A DNA stretch of 24,000 bases from Oceanospirillaceae bacterium (GCA_015665455.1 JADFAD010000013.1:70918-94917), one strand, 5' to 3'. Shown: positions 576 through 13,258, numbered from the stretch's first letter. Made by a program: numbers and translations. The notes: a model not told the origin generated them from the sequence alone.

Positions 576-1286
576 ATGGGACGAGTGTTAAATAAAAATA
601 AAGTAGTTATTTTTACAGGCGCAGGGATAAGCGCTGAAAGTGGTATCCGCACATTCAGGGATTCAGACGGCTTATGGAATGAATATCTAGTTGAAGACGT
701 AGCCACACCCGGCGCATGGGCCAGAAACCCGGAACTGGTATTGAATTTCTATAACGATTGCCGCGATCAAATGACAAGCGCCCTACCCAATGCAGCCCAC
801 AAGGCCATTGCTGAACTGGAAGAAAAGTATGAAGTCATCGTCATCACCCAGAATATAGATGACCTGCACGAACGTGCTGGCTCATCCAATGTCATTCATC
901 TACACGGTGAAATTTCGAAAGCACGCAGCTCACTCGATGAAACACTCATTTATGACATTGGCAAGAAAAGAATGACCAAAGATGACACCTGCGAACTTAG
1001 GAGCCCTTTACGGCCGCATATAGTATGGTTTGGCGAGAACATCTTAAATTATGACGAAGCCAGAAATTACATTAAAAACGCGGCACGAGTGCTGGTCGTT
1101 GGGTCATCTTTAAGTGTTTATCCCGCCGCAGGGTTATTAAAAAAAGCCAGCTTTCATGCCGAGAAAGGCATTATTTCTTTAGAGGTCGACAAGGTGCCCT
1201 ATGGATACCAATTTAAACGGGGCAAGGCGTCAAACCTTGTACCCTGCATTGTGGAAAGTTGGTTGAACAGGGAAAGAGCGTTTTAA
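576..1286 (+). CDS. SIR2-family NAD-dependent protein deacylase (short CobB-like sirtuin without Zn-ribbon cysteines)
   Basis: Canonical sirtuin motifs are present: FTGAGISAESGIRTFRD, ITQNIDDLHERAG, HLHGE, RPHIVWFGE, VVGSSLSVYPAAG. AGGAAG RBS lies 5 nt upstream of the ATG. Confidence 0.85.
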   Translation: MGRVLNKNKVVIFTGAGISAESGIRTFRDSDGLWNEYLVEDVATPGAWARNPELVLNFYNDCRDQMTSALPNAAHKAIAELEEKYEVIVITQNIDDLHERAGSSNVIHLHGEISKARSSLDETLIYDIGKKRMTKDDTCELRSPLRPHIVWFGENILNYDEARNYIKNAARVLVVGSSLSVYPAAGLLKKASFHAEKGIISLEVDKVPYGYQFKRGKASNLVPCIVESWLNRERAF

Positions 1287-1317
1287 ACAAGGTACTTAAA
1301 AAACCGAAGGACTGGAT

Positions 1318-1605
1318 TTTGAAAATGAGAATTATACTTAGTTTAGCTAGTTTACCCGTTCTGTTAATGCTTCAAGGTTTTGGGGAGACAAAACTTGAGG
1401 CCTTACAAAAAGATGCTGTCGCATTTTGTGAGGTTCATAAGCTTAGCTCTTGGCAAACATTCTTTTCACAGCAACCTTCAAGCATAAGTGAAGTGGAATC
1501 CGGCTTGTATGATGAACTGGACAACAGGATTGAAAAAGTCATTACAACCTCTGAATTTTCCGAAGTAATAACAGAACTCAATCAGGTTCAATGGCGAAAG
1601 CAGCT
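1318..1605 (+). repeat. Paralogous repeat: 5' ~290 nt of the Cys-pair lipoprotein gene family (decayed copy A')
   Basis: Collinear with 5663-5952, roughly 85% identity by eye. The family ATG is changed to TTG at 1318, and a 3-nt deletion lies near 1378. Confidence 0.7.
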
Positions 1606-1693
1606 TTTAGAACAAACAGGATTGAGCATCTCACCAAACTCAACAGAGTCTCAATTTACCAATTATAAACAAGTGCTAACTAAGTCACTGTAA
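1325..1693 (+). CDS. Decaying paralog (A') of the repeated lipoprotein family; the lipobox Cys is lost, so it is possibly a pseudogene
   Basis: MRIILSLASLPVLLMLQG-FGETKLEALQKDAVAFCEVHKLSSWQ... aligns with the 226-aa protein at 5663-6343. The lipobox LQGC has become LQG through deletion of ctg (ggctgtttt became ggtttt). Similarity to the family stops after WRKQL. The tail (QFTNYKQVLTKS) resembles a later part of the full-length gene (EFYDSLKQVLRE), which implies an internal deletion. Confidence 0.4.
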   Translation: MRIILSLASLPVLLMLQGFGETKLEALQKDAVAFCEVHKLSSWQTFFSQQPSSISEVESGLYDELDNRIEKVITTSEFSEVITELNQVQWRKQLLEQTGLSISPNSTESQFTNYKQVLTKSL

Positions 1694-1799
1694 TTATTAA
1701 AATTTAAAGATAACATCCAGCTCAGTCCTCCTGTTCAGATAAGGACTATTTTAACAATTAATAAATAGTTGTTTAAGACCTCACGAAAAGGAAGTTCGT

Positions 1800-2696
1800 A
1801 TGGCAAGCGTTAGAATAACAGGCTCAGTGGGCCTTAATGCAAAAAATAATATTACTGACATAAAGGCAATTCAATCTTCACTTAATGACCTATTACACCT
1901 CATCCCACCAACAAAAAAATTAGCCGTAGATGGTTCTTTAGGCAGAAAACCAGAAAATTCTAAAACAGTCTCAGCAATTAAATTATACCAACAGAAAGTC
2001 GTTGGTATGGTTCGCCCAGACGCCGTTATTGACCCTAATGGACGTTCACACAGATCTATAAACCTAAAACTAACTCAAAAAGTAACTGTGAAAACAGGAA
2101 CCACACTCCCAGCTGCTAGCCCTAAAAAAGGCATCACAGAAGATGATTATAACAAAGCAGCTAAAAGCTTAGATTGCGAAGTAGCCGTAATAAAAGCAGT
2201 GGCAGAAGTCGAAACATCTGGCGACCCTTTCTTGATATCCGGAAAGCCTAAAATATTATTTGAAGCCCATATTTTCTCTAGAAATACAGGTAACAAATAC
2301 GACACCACAAAAACAAACATATCCTCTCGTAGCTGGAACCGAGCTTTATATAAAGGAGGAGAAAAAGAATATGATCGCTTAAAGGAAGCAATGGAACTAG
2401 ATCGACTAGCCGCCCTTAAATCTGCTTCATGGGGTAGATTCCAAATCATGGGGTTTAACCATAAAGCATCGGGGTTTACAGATGTTGAAAGCTTTGTAAA
2501 AGCTATGTTTAAGTCTGAGGCAGAACACCTAAATGCCTTTGTGAGTTTTATTAAATCAAACAAACTCGATAACAGTTTGAAAAATAAAGACTGGGCAAGT
2601 TTCGCAAAAGGTTACAACGGTAGCTCTTACAAAGAGAATAAATACGATACAAAACTAAAAACTGCCTACGAAAAATTTTCAAAGAAGAAAGGCTAA
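1800..2696 (+). CDS. N-acetylmuramidase family protein (DUF3380/PF11860-like C-terminal domain) with an N-terminal peptidoglycan-binding-like region; candidate cell-wall effector or endolysin-like enzyme
   Basis: C-terminal motifs typical of DUF3380 muramidases are present: AVIKAVAEVETSG, ILFEAHIFSRNTG, SWGRFQIMGFNHKASGF, EHLNAFVSFI, DWASFAKGYNGSSYKENKYDTKL. The N-terminal LAVDGSLGRK...AIKLYQQKV resembles PG_binding_1. There is no signal peptide. AAAAGGAAG RBS is present. Confidence 0.8.
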   Translation: MASVRITGSVGLNAKNNITDIKAIQSSLNDLLHLIPPTKKLAVDGSLGRKPENSKTVSAIKLYQQKVVGMVRPDAVIDPNGRSHRSINLKLTQKVTVKTGTTLPAASPKKGITEDDYNKAAKSLDCEVAVIKAVAEVETSGDPFLISGKPKILFEAHIFSRNTGNKYDTTKTNISSRSWNRALYKGGEKEYDRLKEAMELDRLAALKSASWGRFQIMGFNHKASGFTDVESFVKAMFKSEAEHLNAFVSFIKSNKLDNSLKNKDWASFAKGYNGSSYKENKYDTKLKTAYEKFSKKKG

Positions 2697-2697
2697 C

Positions 2698-3162
2698 ATG
2701 ACACGGAGCTGTCCCATGATTTTTAACTTTTATAAAATTAAACTACTAGCGTCTTTGAGCATTTTTAGTTTATCAGCTTGTGCAGCAACAAATGGCAGTT
2801 GTACAAATTCGGAAGTCTATTTTTCATGCGACTCACCAAAAATCCACGCTGAACTTTGTAAAGACGAAACACAACAATTCCTGATCACCTTAAATGAATC
2901 AAGCACGAAATCAAAAGTAGCATTATCAGGAGAAGCGGATAATCTATTTTCTAAATCAAGTTATCACCGTTTCAAAGTTACGGATCATGTAGTCACCTTC
3001 GACAATAATGGCAACAAAGTCGAACTATATGACCACTTTAGTGAAGAAACAGGTGAAACCTTCCGTGAACTGGGCGTTATTGTTTACGGTGATACACCAA
3101 TCACTTATAAATGTGCTGAGAATTCATCAAGCAAATTAGCTGAGTTAAGTAACACTCAATAA
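2698..3162 (+). CDS. Lipoprotein, putative cognate immunity protein of the muramidase
   Basis: The ATG lies 1 nt after the muramidase stop (TAACATG). A signal peptide with lipobox LSAC is present (LLASLSIFSLSAC). The gene is followed by a strong terminator. Its 3' end is duplicated at 239-390. Confidence 0.7.
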   Translation: MTRSCPMIFNFYKIKLLASLSIFSLSACAATNGSCTNSEVYFSCDSPKIHAELCKDETQQFLITLNESSTKSKVALSGEADNLFSKSSYHRFKVTDHVVTFDNNGNKVELYDHFSEETGETFRELGVIVYGDTPITYKCAENSSSKLAELSNTQ

Positions 3163-3193
3163 GAAAGTTAACCGACCTTAGAAGATAGTCTTT

Positions 3194-3225
3194 AACCCTC
3201 AATATTTCTATTGAGGGTATTTTTC
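3194..3225 (+). terminator. Rho-independent terminator
   Basis: CCCTCAATA (3196-3204), loop tttc, TATTGAGGG (3209-3217), then TATTTTT. Confidence 0.65.
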
Positions 3226-3371
3226 AATCATATTCATGCACTTCTAATTTAAATTCAGGAAGCCTCTTACCTCTCTATCGACTCTGGTTTCAAATCTGTT
3301 TTTGATCGAATCGACCAGTGATATAAATCACGTAAACTAAAGCCAAAGAAAACAAACGCAAGTAAACAATA

Positions 3372-3806
3372 ATGAAGCATCTACTCACCATTTTAATAGC
3401 AATGTTCAGCTCGTTTATTCTTGGCTGTACTTCAGAGGAAACAAGCCCTTCTGAAACGAAATCTAAACAAGCCATTCACCTTTCTGAATCTCAACAATAT
3501 TGTGATTTATACAAACCAAAACGCTGGCTTGAAATGAGAAAAACAATGACTTTTCCTGAAATGGTAGAACACCATAACAAAAGCGTTGAATCGGTCATTC
3601 AAACAAGTGAATTCAGACAGATATTAAGTGGAATTAATGACATTGAACTTTATTCAGTAGGCCATCCTAAAAGAGCCGATAATGCAGAGGCGCTTTATGG
3701 ATATACTGTAAATGAGATTTCAAAACTGACTCATTCAGACTTTTCTTGCCCGAACTTAAAAATCTATTACCAACAACTGTTTATCGACACCTCGTTATCA
3801 CTATGA
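3372..3806 (+). CDS. Lipoprotein, divergent paralog (B) of the repeated Cys-pair lipoprotein family
   Basis: Lipobox FILGC is present. It aligns with 5663-6343 at QQYCDLYKPKRW / AAFCEIHNLNSW, VESVIQTSEF / IEKVIKTSEL and EISKLTHSDFSC / KISKLIKEDWEC, so both Cys are conserved. Confidence 0.65.
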   Translation: MKHLLTILIAMFSSFILGCTSEETSPSETKSKQAIHLSESQQYCDLYKPKRWLEMRKTMTFPEMVEHHNKSVESVIQTSEFRQILSGINDIELYSVGHPKRADNAEALYGYTVNEISKLTHSDFSCPNLKIYYQQLFIDTSLSL

Positions 3807-3823
3807 AATTAACGAATTGGATT

Positions 3824-3967
3824 ATGAAAACAAAGCCTTTAATTGGTTTAATCACCTTACCCGTTCTGTTAATTCTTCAAGGCTGTTTTGGGGAGACAAA
3901 ACTTGAGCATGAACGGGCAGAGAACGCCGAATTACTTAAGAGATTACGAGATGCTGAGTTGAAGTAA
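3824..3967 (+). pseudogene. Chimeric 47-codon ORF: the 5' 84 nt of the lipoprotein family fused to a tail homologous to the 3' end of the NTase-HEPN gene
   Basis: 3824-3908 is nearly identical to 5663-5746 (MKTKPLIGLITLPVLLILQGCFGETKLE). The tail at 3909-3967 (HERAENAELLKRLRDAELK stop) aligns in frame with the minus-strand 9491-9408 (ERERAEK[EAAQKQL]EEALKKLRDAGLE stop). Confidence 0.55.
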
Positions 3968-4325
3968 ATTGATAAATATCTATATACGCTCTGCTTTCAA
4001 TCATGACGTAACAAAATAACTAACCAGTTAACACCTTCGAAACCTGACCATTGAAACACAAAAATATATAAGACTATGATGTCTAATTAAGGTTTATGGA
4101 TTAAACCTCTCTTACAAGATCAATTAGAACGCCACTTAAACACAAGGAAACGTGGAATGATCAATCAAGGTCCATTCATCCCTCTGCCACGACCAAACAA
4201 CCCCACCCCGCTTCAATTGGTTTGAACAACAAGCAAGAGAGTATCACTTCAACAAAGCATTTAGTGCTCGAAAGAATGAAAGCAAAGTAAAAAGGCAAAC
4301 TAGGCAAGAAACGTTCAATATAGAT

Positions 4326-4865
4326 ATGGAGCACCTTAAGAAAGAGCGCATTAGAATTGCGGCTATTGCCAGTTTACAGCACGACCTAGAAGACTACAGA
4401 GCAGGAAACTTAAGCGAAGATGTAGATGATATGGCTTCAGAAAAGCATCATCCAACAAAGAAGCTTGCTAATAACCTAAGAGCCGTAAACGAACCGAAGC
4501 CAAGCCTAAATCATGACCCTCACCATATAATCATGGGCAAAGGACGGTGGCAGGCAATGCAAATGATGAATGCACGATTAACATTGCACATACACGGCAT
4601 TGGTATTAATGACCCCATCAATGGAGTCTGGCTTCCTCGAAATAAAAAAGATAAAGGACACTTGACAACGCCTAAAGCCCCAGCACATAAAGTGATTCAC
4701 CGCTTTAATTATGAAACTTGGATCTCATATAATCTTGGCTCGGTAGATATTCCCGAACATGTTTTTCGAAACCGACTAAAAGCCATTAAACACGGCCTTA
4801 AATATGGTGGTTACCCACTGAAGATTATTGAGAAAAAAGATAAAAACTGGATAGGTGCTGAGTAG
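4326..4865 (+). CDS. AHH-family (HNH/Endonuclease VII fold) nuclease toxin domain protein, probably an orphan C-terminal toxin module
   Basis: The motif layout matches the AHH family: DPHHIIMG ... GIGINDPINGVWLPR ... HKVIHRFNYETW. The reading frame stays open for 55 codons upstream (from 4161) with no ATG, GTG or TTG. Confidence 0.65.
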   Translation: MEHLKKERIRIAAIASLQHDLEDYRAGNLSEDVDDMASEKHHPTKKLANNLRAVNEPKPSLNHDPHHIIMGKGRWQAMQMMNARLTLHIHGIGINDPINGVWLPRNKKDKGHLTTPKAPAHKVIHRFNYETWISYNLGSVDIPEHVFRNRLKAIKHGLKYGGYPLKIIEKKDKNWIGAE

Positions 4866-4867
4866 CA

Positions 4868-5443
4868 ATGGACGTATATCAAATTAAATTTATTCCTGAG
4901 CGTTTCAAAGCGTTTCAGCTCGACTTATTAGACCTTTCTAAACAATTAGGAAAAACAAAACAACTAAGAGAACTAATGCGTCAGCCTATCACTAACGAAT
5001 CTTGGGTTGATATATGGAATGGAGAAATTAAGGGAGACTTTAAAAAATTATCTCCAAAAAGCACTGAAATACCGGATATTTCGTGGTGGTATCACAACAA
5101 GCTAATTCTAACTGAAAAAGCGCATTCTGTTCTTAAAGACTACCTGCAACCAGACGGTGAGTTTCTACCTGTTTTTTCTGAAGGCCAGAAAATGCACGTA
5201 TTCAATTGCCTTTCATTCGCGGAAGAAGACAAAGGGCTTACAGAACAGAAATTCTTGGATGGCTACGAAGATGGACTTAAATCGCTGGCTTTCAATGAAG
5301 CTGATATTAAACCAAGAATGGTCTTTAAGTCCAAGATGGAAGGTTGTAATCGACTTTATGCCCCCCAGAAACTAAAAGACTGTTGTGAAGAGTTTGGCCT
5401 TGAAGGCTTGAGGTTTGACGCGAATTTAATTGACCCCTTTTAG
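4868..5443 (+). CDS. Putative immunity protein for the AHH nuclease (Imm11/DUF1629-like by pattern)
   Basis: It starts 2 nt after the toxin stop (TAGCAATG). There is no signal peptide. The pattern resembles DUF1629/Imm11 proteins that accompany AHH toxins: LILTEKAHSVLKDYLQPDGEFLPV ... VFN ... LKDCCEEFGLEGLRFD. Confidence 0.55.
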   Translation: MDVYQIKFIPERFKAFQLDLLDLSKQLGKTKQLRELMRQPITNESWVDIWNGEIKGDFKKLSPKSTEIPDISWWYHNKLILTEKAHSVLKDYLQPDGEFLPVFSEGQKMHVFNCLSFAEEDKGLTEQKFLDGYEDGLKSLAFNEADIKPRMVFKSKMEGCNRLYAPQKLKDCCEEFGLEGLRFDANLIDPF

Positions 5444-5662
5444 TTGTAGATTCGTTTCTTCTGGCCTAGCCAACGGTTCGTTTTACTTAATAGTCGTGCG
5501 GGGGTTAACTTTTGGGTTATTGCTCTCAGAATGTTATTTACTGAAAAGATAGAGTTTCATTTATTCAAATGAAAACAGAAGTTGGCCAGCCCCATTACAA
5601 TAAATACATGAATTAACCTAATGGCTTGAAGTAAAAACCTATAAATACTACTCGACCAAATT

Positions 5663-5952
5663 ATGAAAACAAAACCTTTAATTGGTTTAATCACCTTACC
5701 CATTCTGTTATTGCTTCAAGGCTGTTTTGGGGAGACAAAGCTAGAGTCGGTACAAAAAGATGCCGCTGCATTTTGTGAGATTCATAACCTTAACTCTTGG
5801 CAAGCGTTCTTTTCACAACAGCCTGCTGGAATCAATGAAGTGGATTCTGGCTTGTATGATGAACTGGACAGCAGAATTGAGAAAGTCATTAAAACCTCTG
5901 AACTTTCAGGAGTAATAACAGAACTCAATCAGGTTCAATGGCGAAAACAACT
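5663..5952 (+). repeat. Master copy of the repeated lipoprotein 5' segment
   Basis: It matches 3824-3908 (84 nt, a few mismatches) and 1318-1605 (about 85% identity by eye). Confidence 0.7.
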
Positions 5953-6343
5953 GTATCCAACTGCTATTGAAAAGATCAGTAAACTAATTAAAGAAGATTG
6001 GGAATGCAGTTATTATGAAGAATTTTACTCAATCAAAGCTGAGAAAGTATCCGATTTTAAACAAGCTGAAACTTTAACTATCAATATCTCGGGTGAGGGC
6101 TTAATTTCTATCGCCCTAGCTCCGCCACAACAAGTTGAGATCACAGAGTTCTACGATTCATTGAAACAAGTGCTCCGTGAACAAGCAATCTCCTCCGTCA
6201 ATATTGCCCCTCATAAAACTACTTCCGCAAAAATCATTGCAGAGATCATGAAAACGGTAGGTAAACTCGGAATTAATGATGTAAATCTGAAAGCAGAGGA
6301 TGAACAATTGGCTGAACTGCAGAACTTATTGAGCCAAGACTGA
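5663..6343 (+). CDS. Lipoprotein, full-length member (A) of the repeated Cys-pair family
   Basis: Signal peptide with lipobox LQGC is present. The gene encodes 226 aa. Its 5' end is repeated at 3824-3908 and 1318-1605. A hairpin follows the gene. Confidence 0.75.
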   Translation: MKTKPLIGLITLPILLLLQGCFGETKLESVQKDAAAFCEIHNLNSWQAFFSQQPAGINEVDSGLYDELDSRIEKVIKTSELSGVITELNQVQWRKQLYPTAIEKISKLIKEDWECSYYEEFYSIKAEKVSDFKQAETLTINISGEGLISIALAPPQQVEITEFYDSLKQVLREQAISSVNIAPHKTTSAKIIAEIMKTVGKLGINDVNLKAEDEQLAELQNLLSQD

Positions 6344-7753: not shown

Positions 7754-7825
7754 TAGCGCTGCGTTTACGGCTGATTGCTGGCTTAGAGCGCCGGGGAAAG
7801 CCAGTCCACAACAGAGGATTATCAG
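7754..7825 (+). repeat. Left copy of a degenerate direct repeat bracketing the NTase-HEPN/RT cassette
   Basis: Four collinear blocks are shared with 10589-10673: tagcgct (7754-7760), ggctgattg (7769-7777), ggcttaga (7780-7787) and gattatca (7817-7824). Confidence 0.35.
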
Positions 7826-7828
7826 AAG

Positions 7829-9349
7829 CTATGTTGTTTCGAGTACCCATGTTGCCACCCATTTATCTATCAGGAATTGTGTGCTCCCTATAGTCATTCT
7901 TAACCAGTGCGTTCGCTCATCGCTTGGTAGAATCTTTGTGGAATATAAAATCGCTCTACGCCCTCGTGAACTCGTATTATATATTTGAGACTTCATATGG
8001 CGAACCCAAGCAATATTGTTGTTAGTAACAGCAGCTATAGCCTGGTTTTCAATGTTAGCTGAAGAGTTGATTAGGTCTTGAGCATTTTGCCCTTGTAATA
8101 GAACTGCATGATGAGCGACAAACCACTCAAGCCAATATCTCGCTAAAGGATTCTTTATAGAATCTGATGCACAGATCGCCTCGATTTCACCCTGATAGTT
8201 TAGCGCACCATTCTCACCAACTATTTGACTAATATAAATCATGGCATCACTAACAACAGGTAGAAAGAATTGGAAATTAGCGAGTATAGGTGCGACTAGA
8301 ACTGAACTGTGCATTGTCCGCGCCCTGCGGATAATACCTTTGGCAAGACCAACATCTAATTTACTTTGATCTATGGCTTTATTTATAGCAACCAGAAACG
8401 CTTGTTCTGCTGCTTCATCTACATCTATTTCGACTTCGTGTTCTTCGACTTCACCAGTGTAAGGATTGAATATCTCCAAACCCTCAAAAATCTCTTCTTT
8501 TTCTAGATCATATGGATTTTGTAGGTATTCAGAAACATACTTTTCAGCTTCCATAATTTTTGTTTTTCCAGAGGCTAAAGTAAGCCGATGGTTCTCATAC
8601 AAATAAGTAGTCAAACTTCTAAGCGCACCATCCAGTTGCCCTGTGTCATTTGCGAAGACACGTATATCATCTACATATCTGGTAAAATTCAAGCCAAGCC
8701 CCTGAAGAAATTGATCTACATCTGTCATTAAGGCTTCTGACATAACAACACTGGCTGCAGGTCCAACGGGTATTCCTTGGGAAGTTTTGCCATTAATTCT
8801 AGATAAGAAGGATTCAATATCTTTAGCTTTGTTTTTTAATTCTGCATCTGCGAATTCAATAGCGTTGTTTAATCGGTGTAGATATATTTGATTGTAAAAG
8901 TCAGTTATATCTGTAGCTAAGATATACTGAAATTGGCCTGCTAGCTCTATCGTTCTTGAATCAAAGTCTGGGTAGCCACCACCTGCAGAAAAGAAACTAC
9001 CTTCATGCATTTGCAATCGATATGAGCATGCTGTTTTAGATTCTACGGGTAAACGTGCAGCCTCCACCTTCTCAGCAATTTCGTATGCCATAGCGGTATA
9101 TATAATTGCATCAACTGGCTCTAGCTGATGCACAATTCTATAGGTACCATTAGCTTTAATAGCTGGTACCGTATGCGGAGGAAAGATCCATAACTTTTCG
9201 ACATTCTTGCTGGAAAGCTCATTTTTCACTTCAGTCCAATTGTGCCAGATCGCATCAAATTCAAACGGCTTAGGAAAGAAGTCTGAATCATAGTACTTCT
9301 CAATATGTTGTTTGGCGAAATCTAAGGCCTCTTCCGTTAGTTTGCTCAT
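7829..9349 (-). CDS. Reverse transcriptase, UG/Abi-like (defence-associated type), with a ~200-aa helical C-terminal extension
   Basis: RT motifs are present: YRIVHQLEPVDAIIY (RT1/2-like), ATDITDFYNQIYLH (motif A), QGIPVGPAASVVMSE (motif B), RYVDDIRVF (motif C; YVDD is encoded at 8666-8677) and LTLASGKTKI (motif E-like). The ATG at 9349 is preceded by GAGG 8 nt upstream; the ORF track starts one codon earlier at TTG 9352. Confidence 0.9.
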   Translation of the reverse strand: MSKLTEEALDFAKQHIEKYYDSDFFPKPFEFDAIWHNWTEVKNELSSKNVEKLWIFPPHTVPAIKANGTYRIVHQLEPVDAIIYTAMAYEIAEKVEAARLPVESKTACSYRLQMHEGSFFSAGGGYPDFDSRTIELAGQFQYILATDITDFYNQIYLHRLNNAIEFADAELKNKAKDIESFLSRINGKTSQGIPVGPAASVVMSEALMTDVDQFLQGLGLNFTRYVDDIRVFANDTGQLDGALRSLTTYLYENHRLTLASGKTKIMEAEKYVSEYLQNPYDLEKEEIFEGLEIFNPYTGEVEEHEVEIDVDEAAEQAFLVAINKAIDQSKLDVGLAKGIIRRARTMHSSVLVAPILANFQFFLPVVSDAMIYISQIVGENGALNYQGEIEAICASDSIKNPLARYWLEWFVAHHAVLLQGQNAQDLINSSANIENQAIAAVTNNNIAWVRHMKSQIYNTSSRGRRAILYSTKILPSDERTHWLRMTIGSTQFLIDKWVATWVLETT

Positions 9350-9407
9350 CAAAAATACCTCTATGGTTTTACCATGATCTGGCGGACACCTAGATAAGAT
9401 TTAATAT

Positions 9408-10541
9408 TCACTCCAACCCTGCATCCCGTAATTTCTTCAACGCTTCTTCCAACTGCTTTTGAGCCGCTTCCTTCTCAGCTCTTTCACGCTCCAACTCCAC
9501 CTCTTTTTCAGCCAACAACTCTTCCTGCTGTAACACCAACACTTCTGGCAGTGGTGTGTCTTTCAGGGTATCAAGATCCAAAAAGCGATAAGGCAATTTT
9601 TGGCTGTTGGAGTAGTTTTGTTCAGGGATAAAGCCATCGATGGTGTTCAGGCTTTGTTGGTACACCCATTGCTGAAAGTTAGCCACCCAGTGGGTGAGGA
9701 TGTCCAATACCTCTTTGCTGACTTCGTAATTGGGTTTGTAGCGGGAATCAATATAGGAATCACCAAAAAAAGCGAAGTGTTTCCTATCTTCTTTTGTGTC
9801 ACTAGGGAAAATGCTTTTAATCTCTGGGGCCAGAGTGGCTACCCTACTACGTAGTTCATACAGTTTATGAGTGCGGGGTTTGTAATGGGTAGTGACCAGT
9901 AAATATAAGCCAAACAAACGCTCTGTCATTTGATGTAAGCTAAAGATGGCACCGCTTAATGCGCCTTTCTGGTAGAGGTATTCAAAGGTCTGTTGAGATT
10001 CAACGGCTTTTTGATAGAAACGCTCAAAGTAATTGATGCTGATTTCGCGGCGTTGTGCAGGGGAAAGCTGTTGCGGTTGGGCCAGCTTAACATTGTCCTC
10101 AAACAACACGACCCCTTCATTGACTACATCGAGGTAAAAGTACTCACTGCGATTGAGGCTTTTATTCAGGCTATCGAGGGTTTCATAAATAACGTGGAAG
10201 GTGGACGTCAGTTCTGGGCTCTCTTCAATCAGGCCAATGAACTTCTTATGCAGATTGGATTTCTTGGCGGATTCTTTACTCCGTAATACCACTAAAACAT
10301 CGACGTCAGAGTTATATTCCGATACCGCACCGTTACTGTCTATACGGCGGTCGTTGATAAAATCGCCACGGGCGTAACTGCCGAATAACCAGATCATGGC
10401 CACGTCTTTTTTGCACGTCTGGTGAATCAGCTTCACCGCCGTTTCAAGTTCCGCCTGAATGTTGGCCGGGACATGATCCAGTGAAGTATTAAATTCAGTG
10501 CTTGGGGCTGTCATTGCAGTGGGTAGACCTTTCCGTGTCAA
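9408..10541 (-). CDS. Fusion protein: MNT-type (pol-beta superfamily) nucleotidyltransferase domain, HEPN-like domain and C-terminal coiled coil
   Basis: NTase motifs LFGSYARGD (10362-10382) and SDVDVLVV (DVDV at 10296-10307) are present. The helical HEPN-like part reads SGAIFSLHQMTERLFGLYLL ... PRTHKLYEL ... GDSYIDSRYKPNY. The tail EELLAEKEVELERERAEKEAAQKQLEEALKKL is charged heptads. The track start is TTG 10541; the first ATG is at 10514 (MTAPSTEF). The stop lies 55 nt upstream of the RT start on the same strand. Confidence 0.8.
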   Translation of the reverse strand: MTRKGLPTAMTAPSTEFNTSLDHVPANIQAELETAVKLIHQTCKKDVAMIWLFGSYARGDFINDRRIDSNGAVSEYNSDVDVLVVLRSKESAKKSNLHKKFIGLIEESPELTSTFHVIYETLDSLNKSLNRSEYFYLDVVNEGVVLFEDNVKLAQPQQLSPAQRREISINYFERFYQKAVESQQTFEYLYQKGALSGAIFSLHQMTERLFGLYLLVTTHYKPRTHKLYELRSRVATLAPEIKSIFPSDTKEDRKHFAFFGDSYIDSRYKPNYEVSKEVLDILTHWVANFQQWVYQQSLNTIDGFIPEQNYSNSQKLPYRFLDLDTLKDTPLPEVLVLQQEELLAEKEVELERERAEKEAAQKQLEEALKKLRDAGLE

Positions 10542-10588
10542 TCGTAGTGCGGTTCACTAAAGTAAAGAACCTAAGTAGTCAACCATAG

Positions 10589-10673
10589 TAGCACTCAGGC
10601 TGATTGAAACAAACGGAAAATCGGCTTAGATATAACGGATCATTTCCTGATCGGAACACTCCCTGATTAATCA
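10589..10673 (+). repeat. Right copy of the degenerate direct repeat bracketing the cassette
   Basis: Blocks are in the same order as at 7754-7825: tagcact (10589-10595), ggctgattg (10598-10606), ggcttaga (10623-10630) and gattaatca (10665-10673). Confidence 0.35.
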
Positions 10674-10705
10674 TAAAAGTTTAACCAGAGTTCCGATTCT
10701 TTTTT

Positions 10706-10734
10706 AAAATAAGAGCCATTTGCAAAATATTCAA
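10706..10734 (-). promoter_or_regulatory. Possible sigma70-type promoter for the NTase-HEPN/RT cassette (or for a leader ncRNA)
   Basis: On the minus strand: TTGAAT (10734-10729), a 17-nt spacer, then TATTTT (10711-10706). This would give a leader of roughly 160-185 nt before the first cassette gene. Confidence 0.25.
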
Positions 10735-10752
10735 AGACAGCAATGATCTAAT

Positions 10753-10908
10753 TTATTTCGTAATTTTCGCTTTGCCTTTACTCAGTTGCGACCTTTCTTG
10801 CGCAGCAAATTTTACAGCCTTTGTACGCGCATTCTCTAAAGTAACCTCGCCTTCCAGAGGTTTAGTCTGTTTTTCATGATCCAGTAAAGGTTGTTTACTC
10901 TTCATCAT
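10753..10908 (-). CDS. Possible 51-aa lysine-rich ORF (below the track cutoff)
   Basis: Hand translation gives MMKSKQPLLDHEKQTKPLEGEVTLENARTKAVKFAAQERSQLSKGKAKITK stop. The ATGATG overlaps the stop region of the upstream ORF by 14 nt. Confidence 0.25.
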   Translation of the reverse strand: MMKSKQPLLDHEKQTKPLEGEVTLENARTKAVKFAAQERSQLSKGKAKITK

Positions 10909-11095
10909 GTTCTTCTTCCTTGAGTATGTTTTTCATATCACCACCTGACGCTAAAGAATCAGGTTCCTTTTCTGCCAGAGCTTTAAAAGCTTCTCTTTCT
11001 TCCGCTGCACGCTTTCTTATTTCTTCAATAGACCAACCAGAGTTATCTCGCTTTTCTTGTCTTGCTTCTTGAAGATCAACAACTTTCTTTTTCAT
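10895..11095 (-). CDS. Hypothetical highly charged small protein (66 aa from the ATG; 79 aa from TTG at 11134)
   Basis: MKKKVVDLQEARQEKRDNSGWSIEEIRKRAAEEREAFKAL... An AAGGG RBS lies upstream of ATG 11095. No motif was recognised. Confidence 0.45.
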   Translation of the reverse strand: MKKKVVDLQEARQEKRDNSGWSIEEIRKRAAEEREAFKALAEKEPDSLASGGDMKNILKEEEHDEE

Positions 11096-11121
11096 TACAA
11101 GACCCTTAAACACAGAGTGAT

Positions 11122-11496
11122 CTAAGAACCACAAGCCAAAATAATTCTGACACCAGAGACATCTTTAAACCCTAACTGAATATCGGATGAAAGAATAAGC
11201 GATACCTCTCTCGACTTTTTCAAAGCAAACCTGTCACTTCTTTGAACTTCATTATCAAGCATTACAGAGTAACCTGTAATTGCAGATTTACATCCGCAAT
11301 ATCCAGTGCTCTTAATGACTCTTAAATCAAGATCAAGTAACCAAAGATTGTTATGCATCGTTGTATTAGAAGACTCAATCCTCACACACTCATTCAAATT
11401 ATTTTCAATACTGACTTCATCTGAAATTGAATAAAAAGAAATACAAGACAAAAACAATACAAACAAATATTTAAAGTTCACGAACATAGGTTTCAC
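11122..11496 (-). CDS. Hypothetical secreted protein (124 aa)
   Basis: N-terminal signal-like segment FKYLFVLFLSCISFYSISDE is present, plus a Cys-containing mature part (YCGCKS, ILACGS). Confidence 0.5.
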   Translation of the reverse strand: MKPMFVNFKYLFVLFLSCISFYSISDEVSIENNLNECVRIESSNTTMHNNLWLLDLDLRVIKSTGYCGCKSAITGYSVMLDNEVQRSDRFALKKSREVSLILSSDIQLGFKDVSGVRIILACGS

Positions 11497-11514
11497 AAAT
11501 GAGACTAAGTAAAG

Positions 11515-12495
11515 TCACTCCAGTTTCCTTAATGCAAATCTGCCCCGTTCTGACACCGGGTTCGATTCATCCGATGCAAATTTTTGAGCATATGCTTTAG
11601 ACTCGTCCCCCATATTCTCAAGCTCTCGAATCAAAAATTCTGCTGATACCCTTCTTACAATGGATGAACGATCTTCAGAGGAATGTTTCAATAGTTTCAA
11701 AAACAGAGGTTTAACATCTATCTTGCGCTCAGAAACAACGGCTTTATATCTCCCCTCATTGTAACGAATGTCTGTCCACTCCCACTTTCTGCCTTCAATC
11801 CAAACTATTCGTCCTTCAAATAAGCAGCGAAAGGCTTTTGCCCTAAGTGAAGGCTGAATGGCTCGGGCTGAAATTTCTTCAATATAGTTATCGAGAATTG
11901 AAGTTCGGCCAAGTTGAGAGAATAGAGAAGTCATAGGCCCAGCGGTTGCAGTAATTAACTTAGATTTTAGAGCCTCAGCAATTTCATTTCTGGATATAAT
12001 CTGTAAAAGAACGTTTTTGTCCGCCTCTTCAATCCTTCCCCAAGAGTTCCAATTTGAAAGAGTAATACAAAGCGCTTCAACCACATGAGCGGGATCTGTT
12101 GCTATAGCAATTTCCGGAAGTTTCTCCCTAGCAGCCTCTCGAATTTGGGGCACCCAGTCATTTAATCTACGGATCGCAATCAAAAAGAAAAAAGCGTTAG
12201 GTGCTGCACCAGATAACGCCCTTAAGGTTTTCTCTCGTTTATAGCCATCCCAACTGGTCAAGTCCAGCCAAGTAAGTAGCTCACGAGACTTAGACCGAAA
12301 TATCCAATCTAGTTTTGAGGAATTATTTGAAAAACGAGAAAACTCATCTCTGATCAACCGCTCCCAATAATCTAAATTAGACAAAGGTAATTGTGAAGTT
12401 GCTTCAACAAGAGACGACATATCAGCCACTACCTTACTCCCCGAATTAATCGAGCGAGCGAAGTCTTTGACTGCTGATTTGACTTTATCTTCCAT
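11515..12495 (-). CDS. Hypothetical HEAT/ARM-like helical repeat protein (326 aa)
   Basis: Recurrent HEAT-like segments are present: GYKREKTLRALSG, NDWVPQIREAAREKLPEI, DRSSIVRRVSAEFLI, SNPVSERGRFALRKL. There is no signal peptide. Confidence 0.55.
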   Translation of the reverse strand: MEDKVKSAVKDFARSINSGSKVVADMSSLVEATSQLPLSNLDYWERLIRDEFSRFSNNSSKLDWIFRSKSRELLTWLDLTSWDGYKREKTLRALSGAAPNAFFFLIAIRRLNDWVPQIREAAREKLPEIAIATDPAHVVEALCITLSNWNSWGRIEEADKNVLLQIISRNEIAEALKSKLITATAGPMTSLFSQLGRTSILDNYIEEISARAIQPSLRAKAFRCLFEGRIVWIEGRKWEWTDIRYNEGRYKAVVSERKIDVKPLFLKLLKHSSEDRSSIVRRVSAEFLIRELENMGDESKAYAQKFASDESNPVSERGRFALRKLE

Positions 12496-12541
12496 GAGTC
12501 AAGGTTCTTGCAGATATTTCCCGAATTCAGTTATCAATTAG

Positions 12542-13258
12542 CTACTTTGCCACCCATTTTCCATTTTTTAAAACCAATCCATATTTGAGAAGAGGGTTAG
12601 GCAACTCTTTATTCAAACCTAACATATATGAACTTGCCGTTTTCACACCCTCAAGGTCTTTCGAATCAGCATAAATAAAAGTTCGTGATGCAGCCAAATA
12701 AACAATAAGATCCCCTTCAACTGATTCAGAAATTTCATTGATAAACTTTTTAGAAAGTATCAATGATGATTCATAATTCCCATCTATTAAGACTGCACCA
12801 CTTTTTGTGTTAGAAAACTGAACATTCTTTCTTTTTTTATTCTTCGAGTATTCGTATAAATTATTATCAATCAAATTCTGAAGTTCAAGCTTGGTTATCC
12901 CTAATACCTTTAAATGACTATTTGATAATATTTGAGAGAAATCACCATGATCTATGACATAAATAACAGATATGCCATCTATGAACGGCTCAACTAAAAT
13001 AGAATGATGATCTTTTGATTCTATTAATTGAGAAGGTATATCCCTATTAATAGAAGGAACAAAGTGTGTTTTACCCGATGAAGAATTCATTAAAACATAA
13101 CTATCATGCCCTTCCTGAACAGCTTCATCTAGTAATTCGTTAGTAACAAGCTTTGGATATATATTATCGATTTTTATAGACGAGGTACTCTGCACTGTGG
13201 AGCAACCAGCCATAAAAAACAATACAAACGCCAAAACTGTCATCTTCTTAAAAGCCAT
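12542..13258 (-). CDS. Hypothetical lipoprotein (238 aa)
   Basis: Signal peptide with lipobox MAGC (TVLAFVLFFMAGCSTVQ). It is the first gene of a tightly spaced minus-strand gene string. Confidence 0.6.
   Translation of the reverse strand: MAFKKMTVLAFVLFFMAGCSTVQSTSSIKIDNIYPKLVTNELLDEAVQEGHDSYVLMNSSSGKTHFVPSINRDIPSQLIESKDHHSILVEPFIDGISVIYVIDHGDFSQILSNSHLKVLGITKLELQNLIDNNLYEYSKNKKRKNVQFSNTKSGAVLIDGNYESSLILSKKFINEISESVEGDLIVYLAASRTFIYADSKDLEGVKTASSYMLGLNKELPNPLLKYGLVLKNGKWVAK

Follow-up and report, generated by a model that had tools for sequence, protein, structure and literature searches.

A DRT8-family reverse transcriptase, apparently a former integron cassette, and its probably unrelated nucleotidyltransferase-HEPN neighbor in an Oceanospirillaceae genome

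Introduction

DRT8 (UG7) is a Class 1 UG/Abi reverse transcriptase (RT) with a C-terminal alphaRep domain, the defining feature of Class 1, and protects E. coli from phage T5 (Mestre et al. 2022, PMC9226505). UG7 RTs fall into two phylogenetically congruent variants, one encoded with a PD-(D/E)XK nuclease-like protein (cluster 17) and the other without an associated gene. The nuclease-paired variant has been validated and requires the nuclease active site, whereas the gene-less variant had no experimental test (PMC9226505). DRT8 is also among the few DRT types without an established mechanism (PMC13213688). Here, we analyze a stretch of 24,000 nucleotides (“the window”) from an Oceanospirillaceae bacterium (GCA_015665455.1, JADFAD010000013.1:70918-94917), in which an RT gene (7829..9349, minus strand) lies 55 bp downstream of a gene on the same strand (9408..10514) that encodes a fused nucleotidyltransferase (NTase)-HEPN-coiled-coil protein. 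A preliminary description, made from the sequence, had taken the two genes for a two-gene cassette and a candidate RT-based defense system that matched no characterized DRT. Our analysis shows that the RT is a member of the DRT8/UG7 family, and the apparently novel system most probably resolves into this family member and an unrelated neighbor.

Three further groups of described systems are relevant to the locus. The characterized Class 1 UG/Abi RTs (AbiK, Abi-P2, AbiA, and DRT4) all form oligomers, prime on a tyrosine of their own, and make random, untemplated single-stranded DNA (ssDNA) (PMC12783706); in the case of DRT4, a phage ssDNA-binding protein stabilizes the product and the cell dies (PMC12783706; PMC13213688). 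HEPN domains of the PF05168 type (“HEPN-T”) are found stand-alone and fused to a nucleotidyltransferase of the MNT type (Anantharaman et al. 2013, PMC3710099, Table 1). In MNT-fused HEPN domains, the RNase residues are typically missing and the domain serves to bind the substrate, and the conserved Tyr of HEPN is a possible nucleotidylation site (PMC3710099). Finally, integrons store phage-defense cassettes (Darracq et al. 2025 and Kieffer et al. 2025, both as summarized in PMC13434031); in the part of the integron cassette literature that was accessible, we did not find DRT8 named among the cassette-borne defense systems.

The RT belongs to the DRT8/UG7 family

The open reading frame (ORF) of the RT spans 9352..7829 on the minus strand. 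With a TTG codon at 9352 as the start, the protein would have 507 aa; it probably begins at the ATG at 9349 and then has 506 aa, like the database copy P0054. Motifs A (ATDITDFY, residues 146-153), B (QGIPVGPAAS, residues 192-201), and C (YVDD, residues 226-229, nucleotides 8666-8677), which the preliminary description had pointed out, are located in the palm/fingers core (residues 135-268, 8549..8950), where Pfam RVT_1 matches with an E value of 3.3e-13. The protein matches the PADLOC Drt8 model (PDLC03783) from end to end, with residues 4-505 aligned to positions 1-491 of 493 (E value 1.9e-145, 484 bits). The runner-up PADLOC models were UG21 (3e-36), UG23 (1e-34), UG22 (2e-28), Drt4 (2e-23), and AbiP2 (4e-18), and the NCBIfam models for Drt2-5, group II intron RTs, retrons, and AbiA all stayed far below their cut-offs.

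The AlphaFold2 model of the RT, built on 21 homologues, has a predicted local distance difference test score (pLDDT) of 84.8 and a predicted template modeling score of 0.85. It consists of the RT core followed by an all-helical region predicted with high pLDDT (residues 311-506, 7832..8422), which corresponds to the alphaRep domain. A YVDD-containing core, a C-terminal helical repeat, and a length of about 500 aa are thus shared with DRT8. The only segment of low confidence (residues 280-310, 8423..8515, pLDDT <50) is an acidic linker between the two parts that is predicted to be flexible and contains the invariant residues Y281 and Y298 (FNPYTG). D148, D228, and D229 are invariant among the 21 homologues; all residues that are invariant in this alignment, YVDD included, are by definition kept in the RT of the window. 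An identical copy was recovered from an independent read set.

Among solved structures, the best whole-chain folds are those of UG15/DRT4, DRT6, Abi-P2, and AbiK (template modeling [TM] scores of 0.5 to 0.62 over about 500 aligned columns), followed by AbiA, and a sequence search of the PDB revealed no closer structure. These proteins are encoded by stand-alone genes, and the fold similarity goes together with an expected activity in protein-primed, untemplated ssDNA synthesis. Yet they are only about 14 to 16% identical to the RT of the window, and their profiles score far below that of Drt8 (see above for Drt4 and AbiP2). On the basis of the full-length profile match, the catalytic motifs, and the alphaRep architecture, the RT is a Class 1 UG/Abi RT of the UG7/DRT8 family. 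The view that it is a UG/Abi-type defense RT is thereby upheld, whereas the statement that it matches no characterized DRT is not, as the family is named and its protection against T5 has been validated (PMC9226505).

Other types of RT were considered and rejected. As a group II intron RT or maturase, the protein scores 50.6 bits with TIGR04416 against a cut-off of 300; Pfam detects no maturase or endonuclease domain and Rfam no intron RNA, in agreement with the preliminary description. Retron models of NCBIfam reach 24 to 48 bits against cut-offs of 235 to 600, no retron RNA was matched in Rfam, and no suitable inverted repeats were found. A diversity-generating retroelement is not supported either, as there is no direct repeat longer than 29 nt between positions 6000 and 12000. 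Searches for a noncoding RNA around the RT with Rfam at a permissive E value gave only matches at chance level.

Validated DRT8 consists of the RT and the PD-(D/E)XK nuclease, both of which are required, whereas no gene for such a nuclease-like protein was found in the window by Pfam and PADLOC scans of the neighboring genes. Because this partner is missing, we place the RT in the partner-less UG7 variant (PMC9226505); it groups with RTs that likewise have no conserved partner.

RT relatives have different neighbors

Relatives of the RT were found in 11 distinct genomic contexts, with RT identities of 38 to 87%. The closest ones are adjoined by different genes. Upstream of the RT are a DUF4145 protein at a distance of 577 bp (L097 to L102, RT 87% identical), a 222-aa protein of unknown function (L115, 87%), an AAA_15/21 ATPase similar to NsnB/HEC-03B (L103, 85%), or a RES-domain protein (L104, 83%). 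In two other contexts, the RT gene stands alone, with a cytochrome b gene on one side and prfC on the other (L117, 82%) or with DUF3530 on one side and djlA-lptD-surA on the other (L116, 72%). RTs that are about 50% identical are found next to transposases or opposite-strand genes (L108, L111, and L112) or downstream of a DUF2971 protein (L113, 50%). The most divergent RT (L114, 38%) still matches Drt8 (E value 1.8e-141) and is preceded, at a distance of 80 bp, by a gene for a 212-aa PD-T4-10_B-like protein. At the DNA level, the window is homologous to the RT loci over positions 7777-9350, up to the RT start codon. Among plasmids, tblastn with the RT revealed only distant RTs with less than 32% identity.

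The partner gene in L114 (4211-4849) has no Pfam match and matches PADLOC PD-T4-10_B with an E value of 3.5e-30; it has no relative in the window. It may encode a PD-(D/E)XK-like DRT8 effector, in which case L114 would represent the partnered variant and the annotations of PD-T4-10 and DRT8 would overlap.

In L104, the region 9330-12603 next to the 83%-identical RT encodes a ubiquitin-like conjugation cluster (Multi_ubiq, ThiF/E1 with DUF6791, and BubE) that resembles Bil/Bub-type antiviral systems.

The RT is an integron gene cassette in other genomes

In L097, L103, and L115, G followed by TTAGAAGC is found about 25 nt ahead of the ATG of the RT ORF. Directly after the RT stop codon in the same loci is an imperfect palindrome of about 72 nt that begins with GCTTCTAACAAGGCGCTG and ends with GCGGCGTTA (L097:7523-7594, L103:3358-3429, and L115:2312-2383). 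These sites and the neighboring ones fold as classical attC hairpins, with compensatory changes in 16 of 23 stem pairs. We built an attC covariance model from six sites of the RT-homologue loci; those six are recovered by construction (64 to 87 bits), the intact attC sites of L097, L103, and L115 reaching 81 to 87 bits. The model also matches attC sites between other genes of L097 and a degenerate attC after the RT in L104. Furthermore, L097 contains an integron integrase in divergent orientation (TIGR02249, 444 bits against a cut-off of 265). Thus, three other genomes carry the RT as an integron gene cassette that consists of a single ORF and an intact attC. These RTs, which are 85 to 87% identical to that of the window, resemble described integron-borne defense cassettes in having a canonical attC and, in at least one case (L097), a place in an array beside an integron integrase.

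The region 2140-9205 of L097 represents a complete integron, with the integrase divergent from an array composed of PhzF-like, Imm58-like, and DUF4145 (HEPN clan) genes, one ORF-less cassette, the RT, a 76-aa ORF, FlmR_OhkR_N, and a 103-aa ORF. In L103, the NsnB/HEC-03B-like AAA ATPase gene is the cassette directly before the RT.

The window differs from these loci in that it has what appears to be a decayed attC remnant, no integrase, and no array. The remnant follows the RT stop codon (7765..7828, minus strand). Its inner stem (7775-7808) has been kept and gives the single match of the covariance model in the window (16.5 bits, E value 0.015, model positions 21-54). It aligns with the intact attC sites of L097, L103, and L115, and its R''/R' boxes are mutated. 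No further attC and no integrase were found in the window with the covariance model and a domain search, and neither a regular-expression search nor the covariance model revealed an attC in the NTase-HEPN loci described below; on these grounds, we rejected the possibilities that the window is an integron array and that the NTase-HEPN gene is itself a cassette. The RT of the window looks like a former cassette that has been stranded outside an integron. A cassette origin would explain the end of the homology at the RT start codon, the varying neighbors, and the absence of a conserved RT promoter. Because cassettes are single mobilizable units, such an origin is also in favor of a functionally self-contained RT: the occurrence of the partner-less DRT8 branch as a single-ORF cassette argues for the RT alone as a complete functional unit.

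The neighboring gene encodes a fused NTase-HEPN protein

The upstream ORF (10541..9408, minus strand) encodes 377 aa if translated from a TTG at 10541; P0001 and all homologues begin at the ATG at 10514, which yields 368 aa and is probably the true start. The protein indeed consists of an MNT-type NTase, a HEPN domain, and a coiled coil, as Pfam, the AlphaFold2 model (pLDDT 86.7), and comparison with PDB folds all indicate. Its NTase part matches NTP_transf_2 (E value 3.1e-07, 31.1 bits against a cut-off of 21) and Polbeta (4.5e-06) and carries the motifs GSYARGD (residues 54-60, 10362-10382) and SDVDVL (residues 78-83, 10293-10310), in which G54, S55, D79, and D81 are invariant among 30 homologues. 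The HEPN domain (PF05168, E value 6.8e-07, 29.9 bits against a cut-off of 22) covers residues 173-291 (9669..10025), which include LHQMTERL (residues 202-209) and YIDSRYKPNY (residues 263-272). This domain is close to 4nqf, an uncharacterized HEPN protein from structural genomics, both in sequence (E value 1.6e-21) and in fold (TM score 0.90). A C-terminal charged coiled coil, seen in the model as a long helix (residues 323-364), and the tail LLKKLRDAGLE(P) complete the protein (9411..9548).

At the position of the HEPN signature, the protein has R267-Y-K-P-N-Y272, i.e., R-x4-Y. R267 and Y268 are nearly invariant and Y272 is invariant in the same 30 homologues, and the histidine of the canonical R-x4-6-H motif is absent at this position of the family alignment; the invariant residues H203, E207, and H225 are situated elsewhere. 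Because the catalytic His is missing, a domain for substrate binding or for regulation, as in ANT/KNTase-type enzymes, is likelier than an RNase effector. The NTase active site is intact, and an active nucleotidyltransferase is a more probable reading of the protein than a HEPN RNase effector; the proposal that a HEPN RNase is the effector of the locus is not sustained, in line with the typical loss of RNase residues in MNT-fused HEPN domains (PMC3710099).

The fold of both domains together is nearest to the ANT-type adenylyltransferases AadA and AAD(9), with a weaker match to Hailong HalB; Foldseek aligns the protein with ANT-type enzymes at an E value of about 1e-6 over about 308 columns. 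AadA/ANT(3'')(9), AAD(9), and KNTase share with it a two-domain architecture, in which a pol-beta NTase at the N terminus is followed by a helical, HEPN-like domain for substrate binding at the C terminus. The identity is only 9 to 14%, however, with TM scores of 0.4 to 0.5, and we found no sign of an aminoglycoside substrate. Assignment to the aminoglycoside-modifying enzymes themselves was rejected because the NCBIfam models for ANT(9) and aminoglycoside adenylyltransferases score 12.6 to 14.8 bits against cut-offs of 193 to 340. A CBASS-type CD-NTase was likewise rejected (SMODS, 20.4 bits against a cut-off of 26.5; PADLOC Cyclase, E value 3.9e-4 over only 60 residues).

It is possible, if on balance improbable, that the protein is a self-contained, fused toxin-antitoxin (TA) or abortive-infection module, comparable to type VII MntA/HepT with a HEPN Tyr that is AMPylated in cis, and that it acts in parallel to the RT. 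The NTase motifs are invariant, and the tyrosines Y268 and Y272 near the conserved Arg recall the AMPylated Tyr of HepT (PMC3710099). More than one copy of the gene appears to exist in the genome, and the coil varies in length. With MntA/HepT, the protein shares both domain superfamilies, the order with the NTase first, and a conserved Tyr beside the HEPN Arg. It differs in being one fused chain, in having a PF05168 HEPN domain instead of DUF86 and a Tyr in place of the catalytic His of R-x4-6-H, and in its extra coil and tail. Moreover, its score with the NCBIfam MntA_antitoxin model (18.6 bits) is far below the cut-off of 60, for which reason we rejected it as an MntA. PADLOC matches are weak and confined to the NTase part, and the whole-protein fold is nearest to AadA and AAD(9). 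A self-regulating, TA-like role is thus possible, and we prefer to regard the protein as a nucleotidyltransferase.

The NTase-HEPN family is small (53 database clusters). About 40 members, mostly from marine Gammaproteobacteria, are of the long form, which has a C-terminal extension, a variable coiled coil of about 20 to more than 80 residues, and a near-invariant tail, LL(K/Q)KLRDAGLE(P); the short form (about 290 aa) has no extension, coil, or tail. The conserved tail resembles a docking or oligomerization motif.

The genome appears to hold further copies of the gene. One of them, P0002 (88% identical), comes from a sequencing run that also yields the RT of the window at 100% identity; another, P0003 (79% identical), is probably from the same contig as the proteins of the window. 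The contig of P0002 (L081) ends at the stop codon of this gene, whose last 27 nt or so, encoding KKLRDAGLE, are identical to those of the copy in the window; this stretch breaks short-read assemblies. Its upstream genes differ from those of the window. DNA homology to the P0002 locus spans 9411-10623 and thus includes a 5' flank (10515..10623) that was inherited with the NTase-HEPN gene and is presumed to be its promoter region. The whole family is uncharacterized and of interest as a nucleotidyltransferase.

The two genes are most probably independent modules

For the NTase-HEPN side, we collected 96 loci (80 on genome contigs, 15 on metagenome contigs, and L081, which was found by exact-protein look-up). 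None of them contains a tblastn match to the RT of the window, and none of the 11 RT contexts contains an NTase-HEPN gene. In an all-versus-all comparison of the neighboring ORFs, nothing recurred except the NTase-HEPN gene and its antisense shadow ORFs, and no conserved partner emerged. In four of the five long-form loci with usable flanks (L002, L082, L083, L084, and L089; L002 and L082 are 69 to 78% identical), the downstream gene is on the opposite strand; L002 has an unrelated 222-aa ORF on the same strand at this place. Viral contigs scanned with the NTase-HEPN alignment gave nothing, and those scanned with the RT alignment gave two loci, neither with an NTase-HEPN gene. We conclude that the pair most probably consists of two independent single-gene modules that are adjacent by chance in this genome. 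The preliminary description is thus correct in that two intact ORFs are present on one strand (the minus strand) with 55 bp between them, but its system-level reading is mostly refuted by the missing synteny and by the RT's membership in a named family: each gene is inherited alone, and the RT circulates as a single-ORF cassette. As for the question of whether the system had already been cataloged, the answer is yes for the RT (Drt8) and no for the pair.

Several points weigh against this conclusion. Usable downstream flanks are available in only five long-form loci, so that a rare but recurrent pairing may escape. The two genes are probably cotranscribed in this genome, as they are on the same strand and separated by a short spacer (9350..9407, with 55 bp from the stop codon to the TTG and an RBS-like GAGG inside) that has no terminator-like hairpin, and as no promoter-like site was found in the roughly 500 bp upstream of the RT. 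Exchange of effectors is known among UG/Abi RTs, and in the case of UG22 the RT occurs together with a HEPN protein (PMC9226505). Validated DRT8 needed its nuclease partner (PMC9226505), its mechanism has not been established experimentally (PMC13213688), and, according to a speculation by Mestre et al., UG7 RTs without a partner may depend on a nuclease in trans (PMC9226505). Lastly, the autonomy of the partner-less branch is something that we infer.

Some of these points could favor a single two-gene defense system, in which the HEPN or the NTase replaces the PD-(D/E)XK nuclease of classical DRT8 as the effector, a reading that we regard as unlikely. In addition to the close spacing on one strand without a terminator, the NTase-HEPN/RT junction is also present in a second sequencing sample (L107), and validated DRT8 needs a separate effector in a group of systems that exchange effectors (PMC9226505). 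However, among roughly 100 NTase-HEPN loci and 11 RT contexts, the pair is found in this genome only. RTs with 83 to 87% identity adjoin four different, unrelated genes or housekeeping genes, and the RT is mobilized alone as an integron cassette. The ends of the homology coincide exactly with the borders of the genes, and the GC content at third codon positions is 0.32 in the RT gene and 0.53 in the NTase-HEPN gene. The HEPN domain lacks the catalytic His, and further NTase-HEPN copies are apparent in the genome (P0003, 79% identical, and P0002, 88% identical, the latter with different upstream genes). UG22, an uncharacterized Class 1 UG/Abi RT that adjoins a HEPN protein (Mestre et al. 2022), offers a parallel for such an arrangement, but the RT of the window scores 2e-28 with the UG22 model against 1.9e-145 with Drt8, and the pairing here is not conserved.

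Accordingly, any functional coupling of the two genes in this one genome seems highly improbable. Least probable of all is a particular form of it, in which a partner-less DRT8 RT derived from an integron was inserted 55 bp downstream of an NTase-HEPN gene already in place, the two are now cotranscribed, and the NTase or HEPN has taken over the effector or regulator role of the PD-(D/E)XK nuclease; if true, a new two-gene RT system would be seen here as it arises.

That the RT is a decaying, nonfunctional cassette remnant outside an integron and that neither gene now acts in defense is very unlikely, for the degraded attC, the lack of an integrase or another attC in the window, and the lack of a promoter-like site near the RT and of other recognized defense genes around it are set against a full-length ORF, the retention of every residue that is invariant in the 21 homologues (YVDD included), a high-confidence model, and an identical copy in an independent read set.

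Proposed mechanism

If the two genes are independent modules, as we believe, the RT would be an autonomous enzyme of the partner-less UG7/DRT8 branch. Because of its fold and organization, it is expected to act like the single-chain Class 1 enzymes, i.e., as an oligomer that carries out protein-primed, template-independent ssDNA synthesis. The ssDNA product might turn toxic or accumulate upon infection and lead to abortive infection. Whereas the family assignment, the folds, the missing synteny, the module boundaries, and the attC sites are shown by the data, the biochemical activities and the anti-phage role of the RT are proposals. In AbiA, a Tyr of the corresponding linker serves as the primer (PMC12783706); by analogy, Y281 or Y298 in the disordered linker between the RT core and the alphaRep domain is a candidate primer. 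The NTase-HEPN protein would be a separate nucleotidyltransferase, with HEPN as its substrate-binding or regulatory domain. A partner-less, cassette-borne DRT8 RT is a compact candidate for resolving what DRT8 RTs synthesize.

Surroundings of the locus

The left 13.3 kb of the window has a GC content of 0.38, compared with 0.47 in the remainder, and core metabolic genes begin at about 13.4 kb. Pfam and PADLOC scans of the neighboring genes revealed no recognizable defense gene besides the RT and no convincing PADLOC match. The assumed setting in an AT-rich defense island therefore holds for the low GC content and for toxin-type genes (AHH nuclease and muramidase), but not for the presence of other defense genes. 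The left 13.3 kb encodes SIR2-family, muramidase, AHH-nuclease, DUF2195, and DUF1444 proteins together with many small ORFs of unknown function. Among them is an accessory gene run on the plus strand (576-6343) with a GC content of 0.35 to 0.39, in which genes for a SIR2-family protein (576-1286), an N-acetylmuramidase (1800-2696), and an AHH-type HNH nuclease (4326-4865) are each followed by small ORFs without a family match. In this arrangement, the run looks like a series of polymorphic toxin/immunity pairs.

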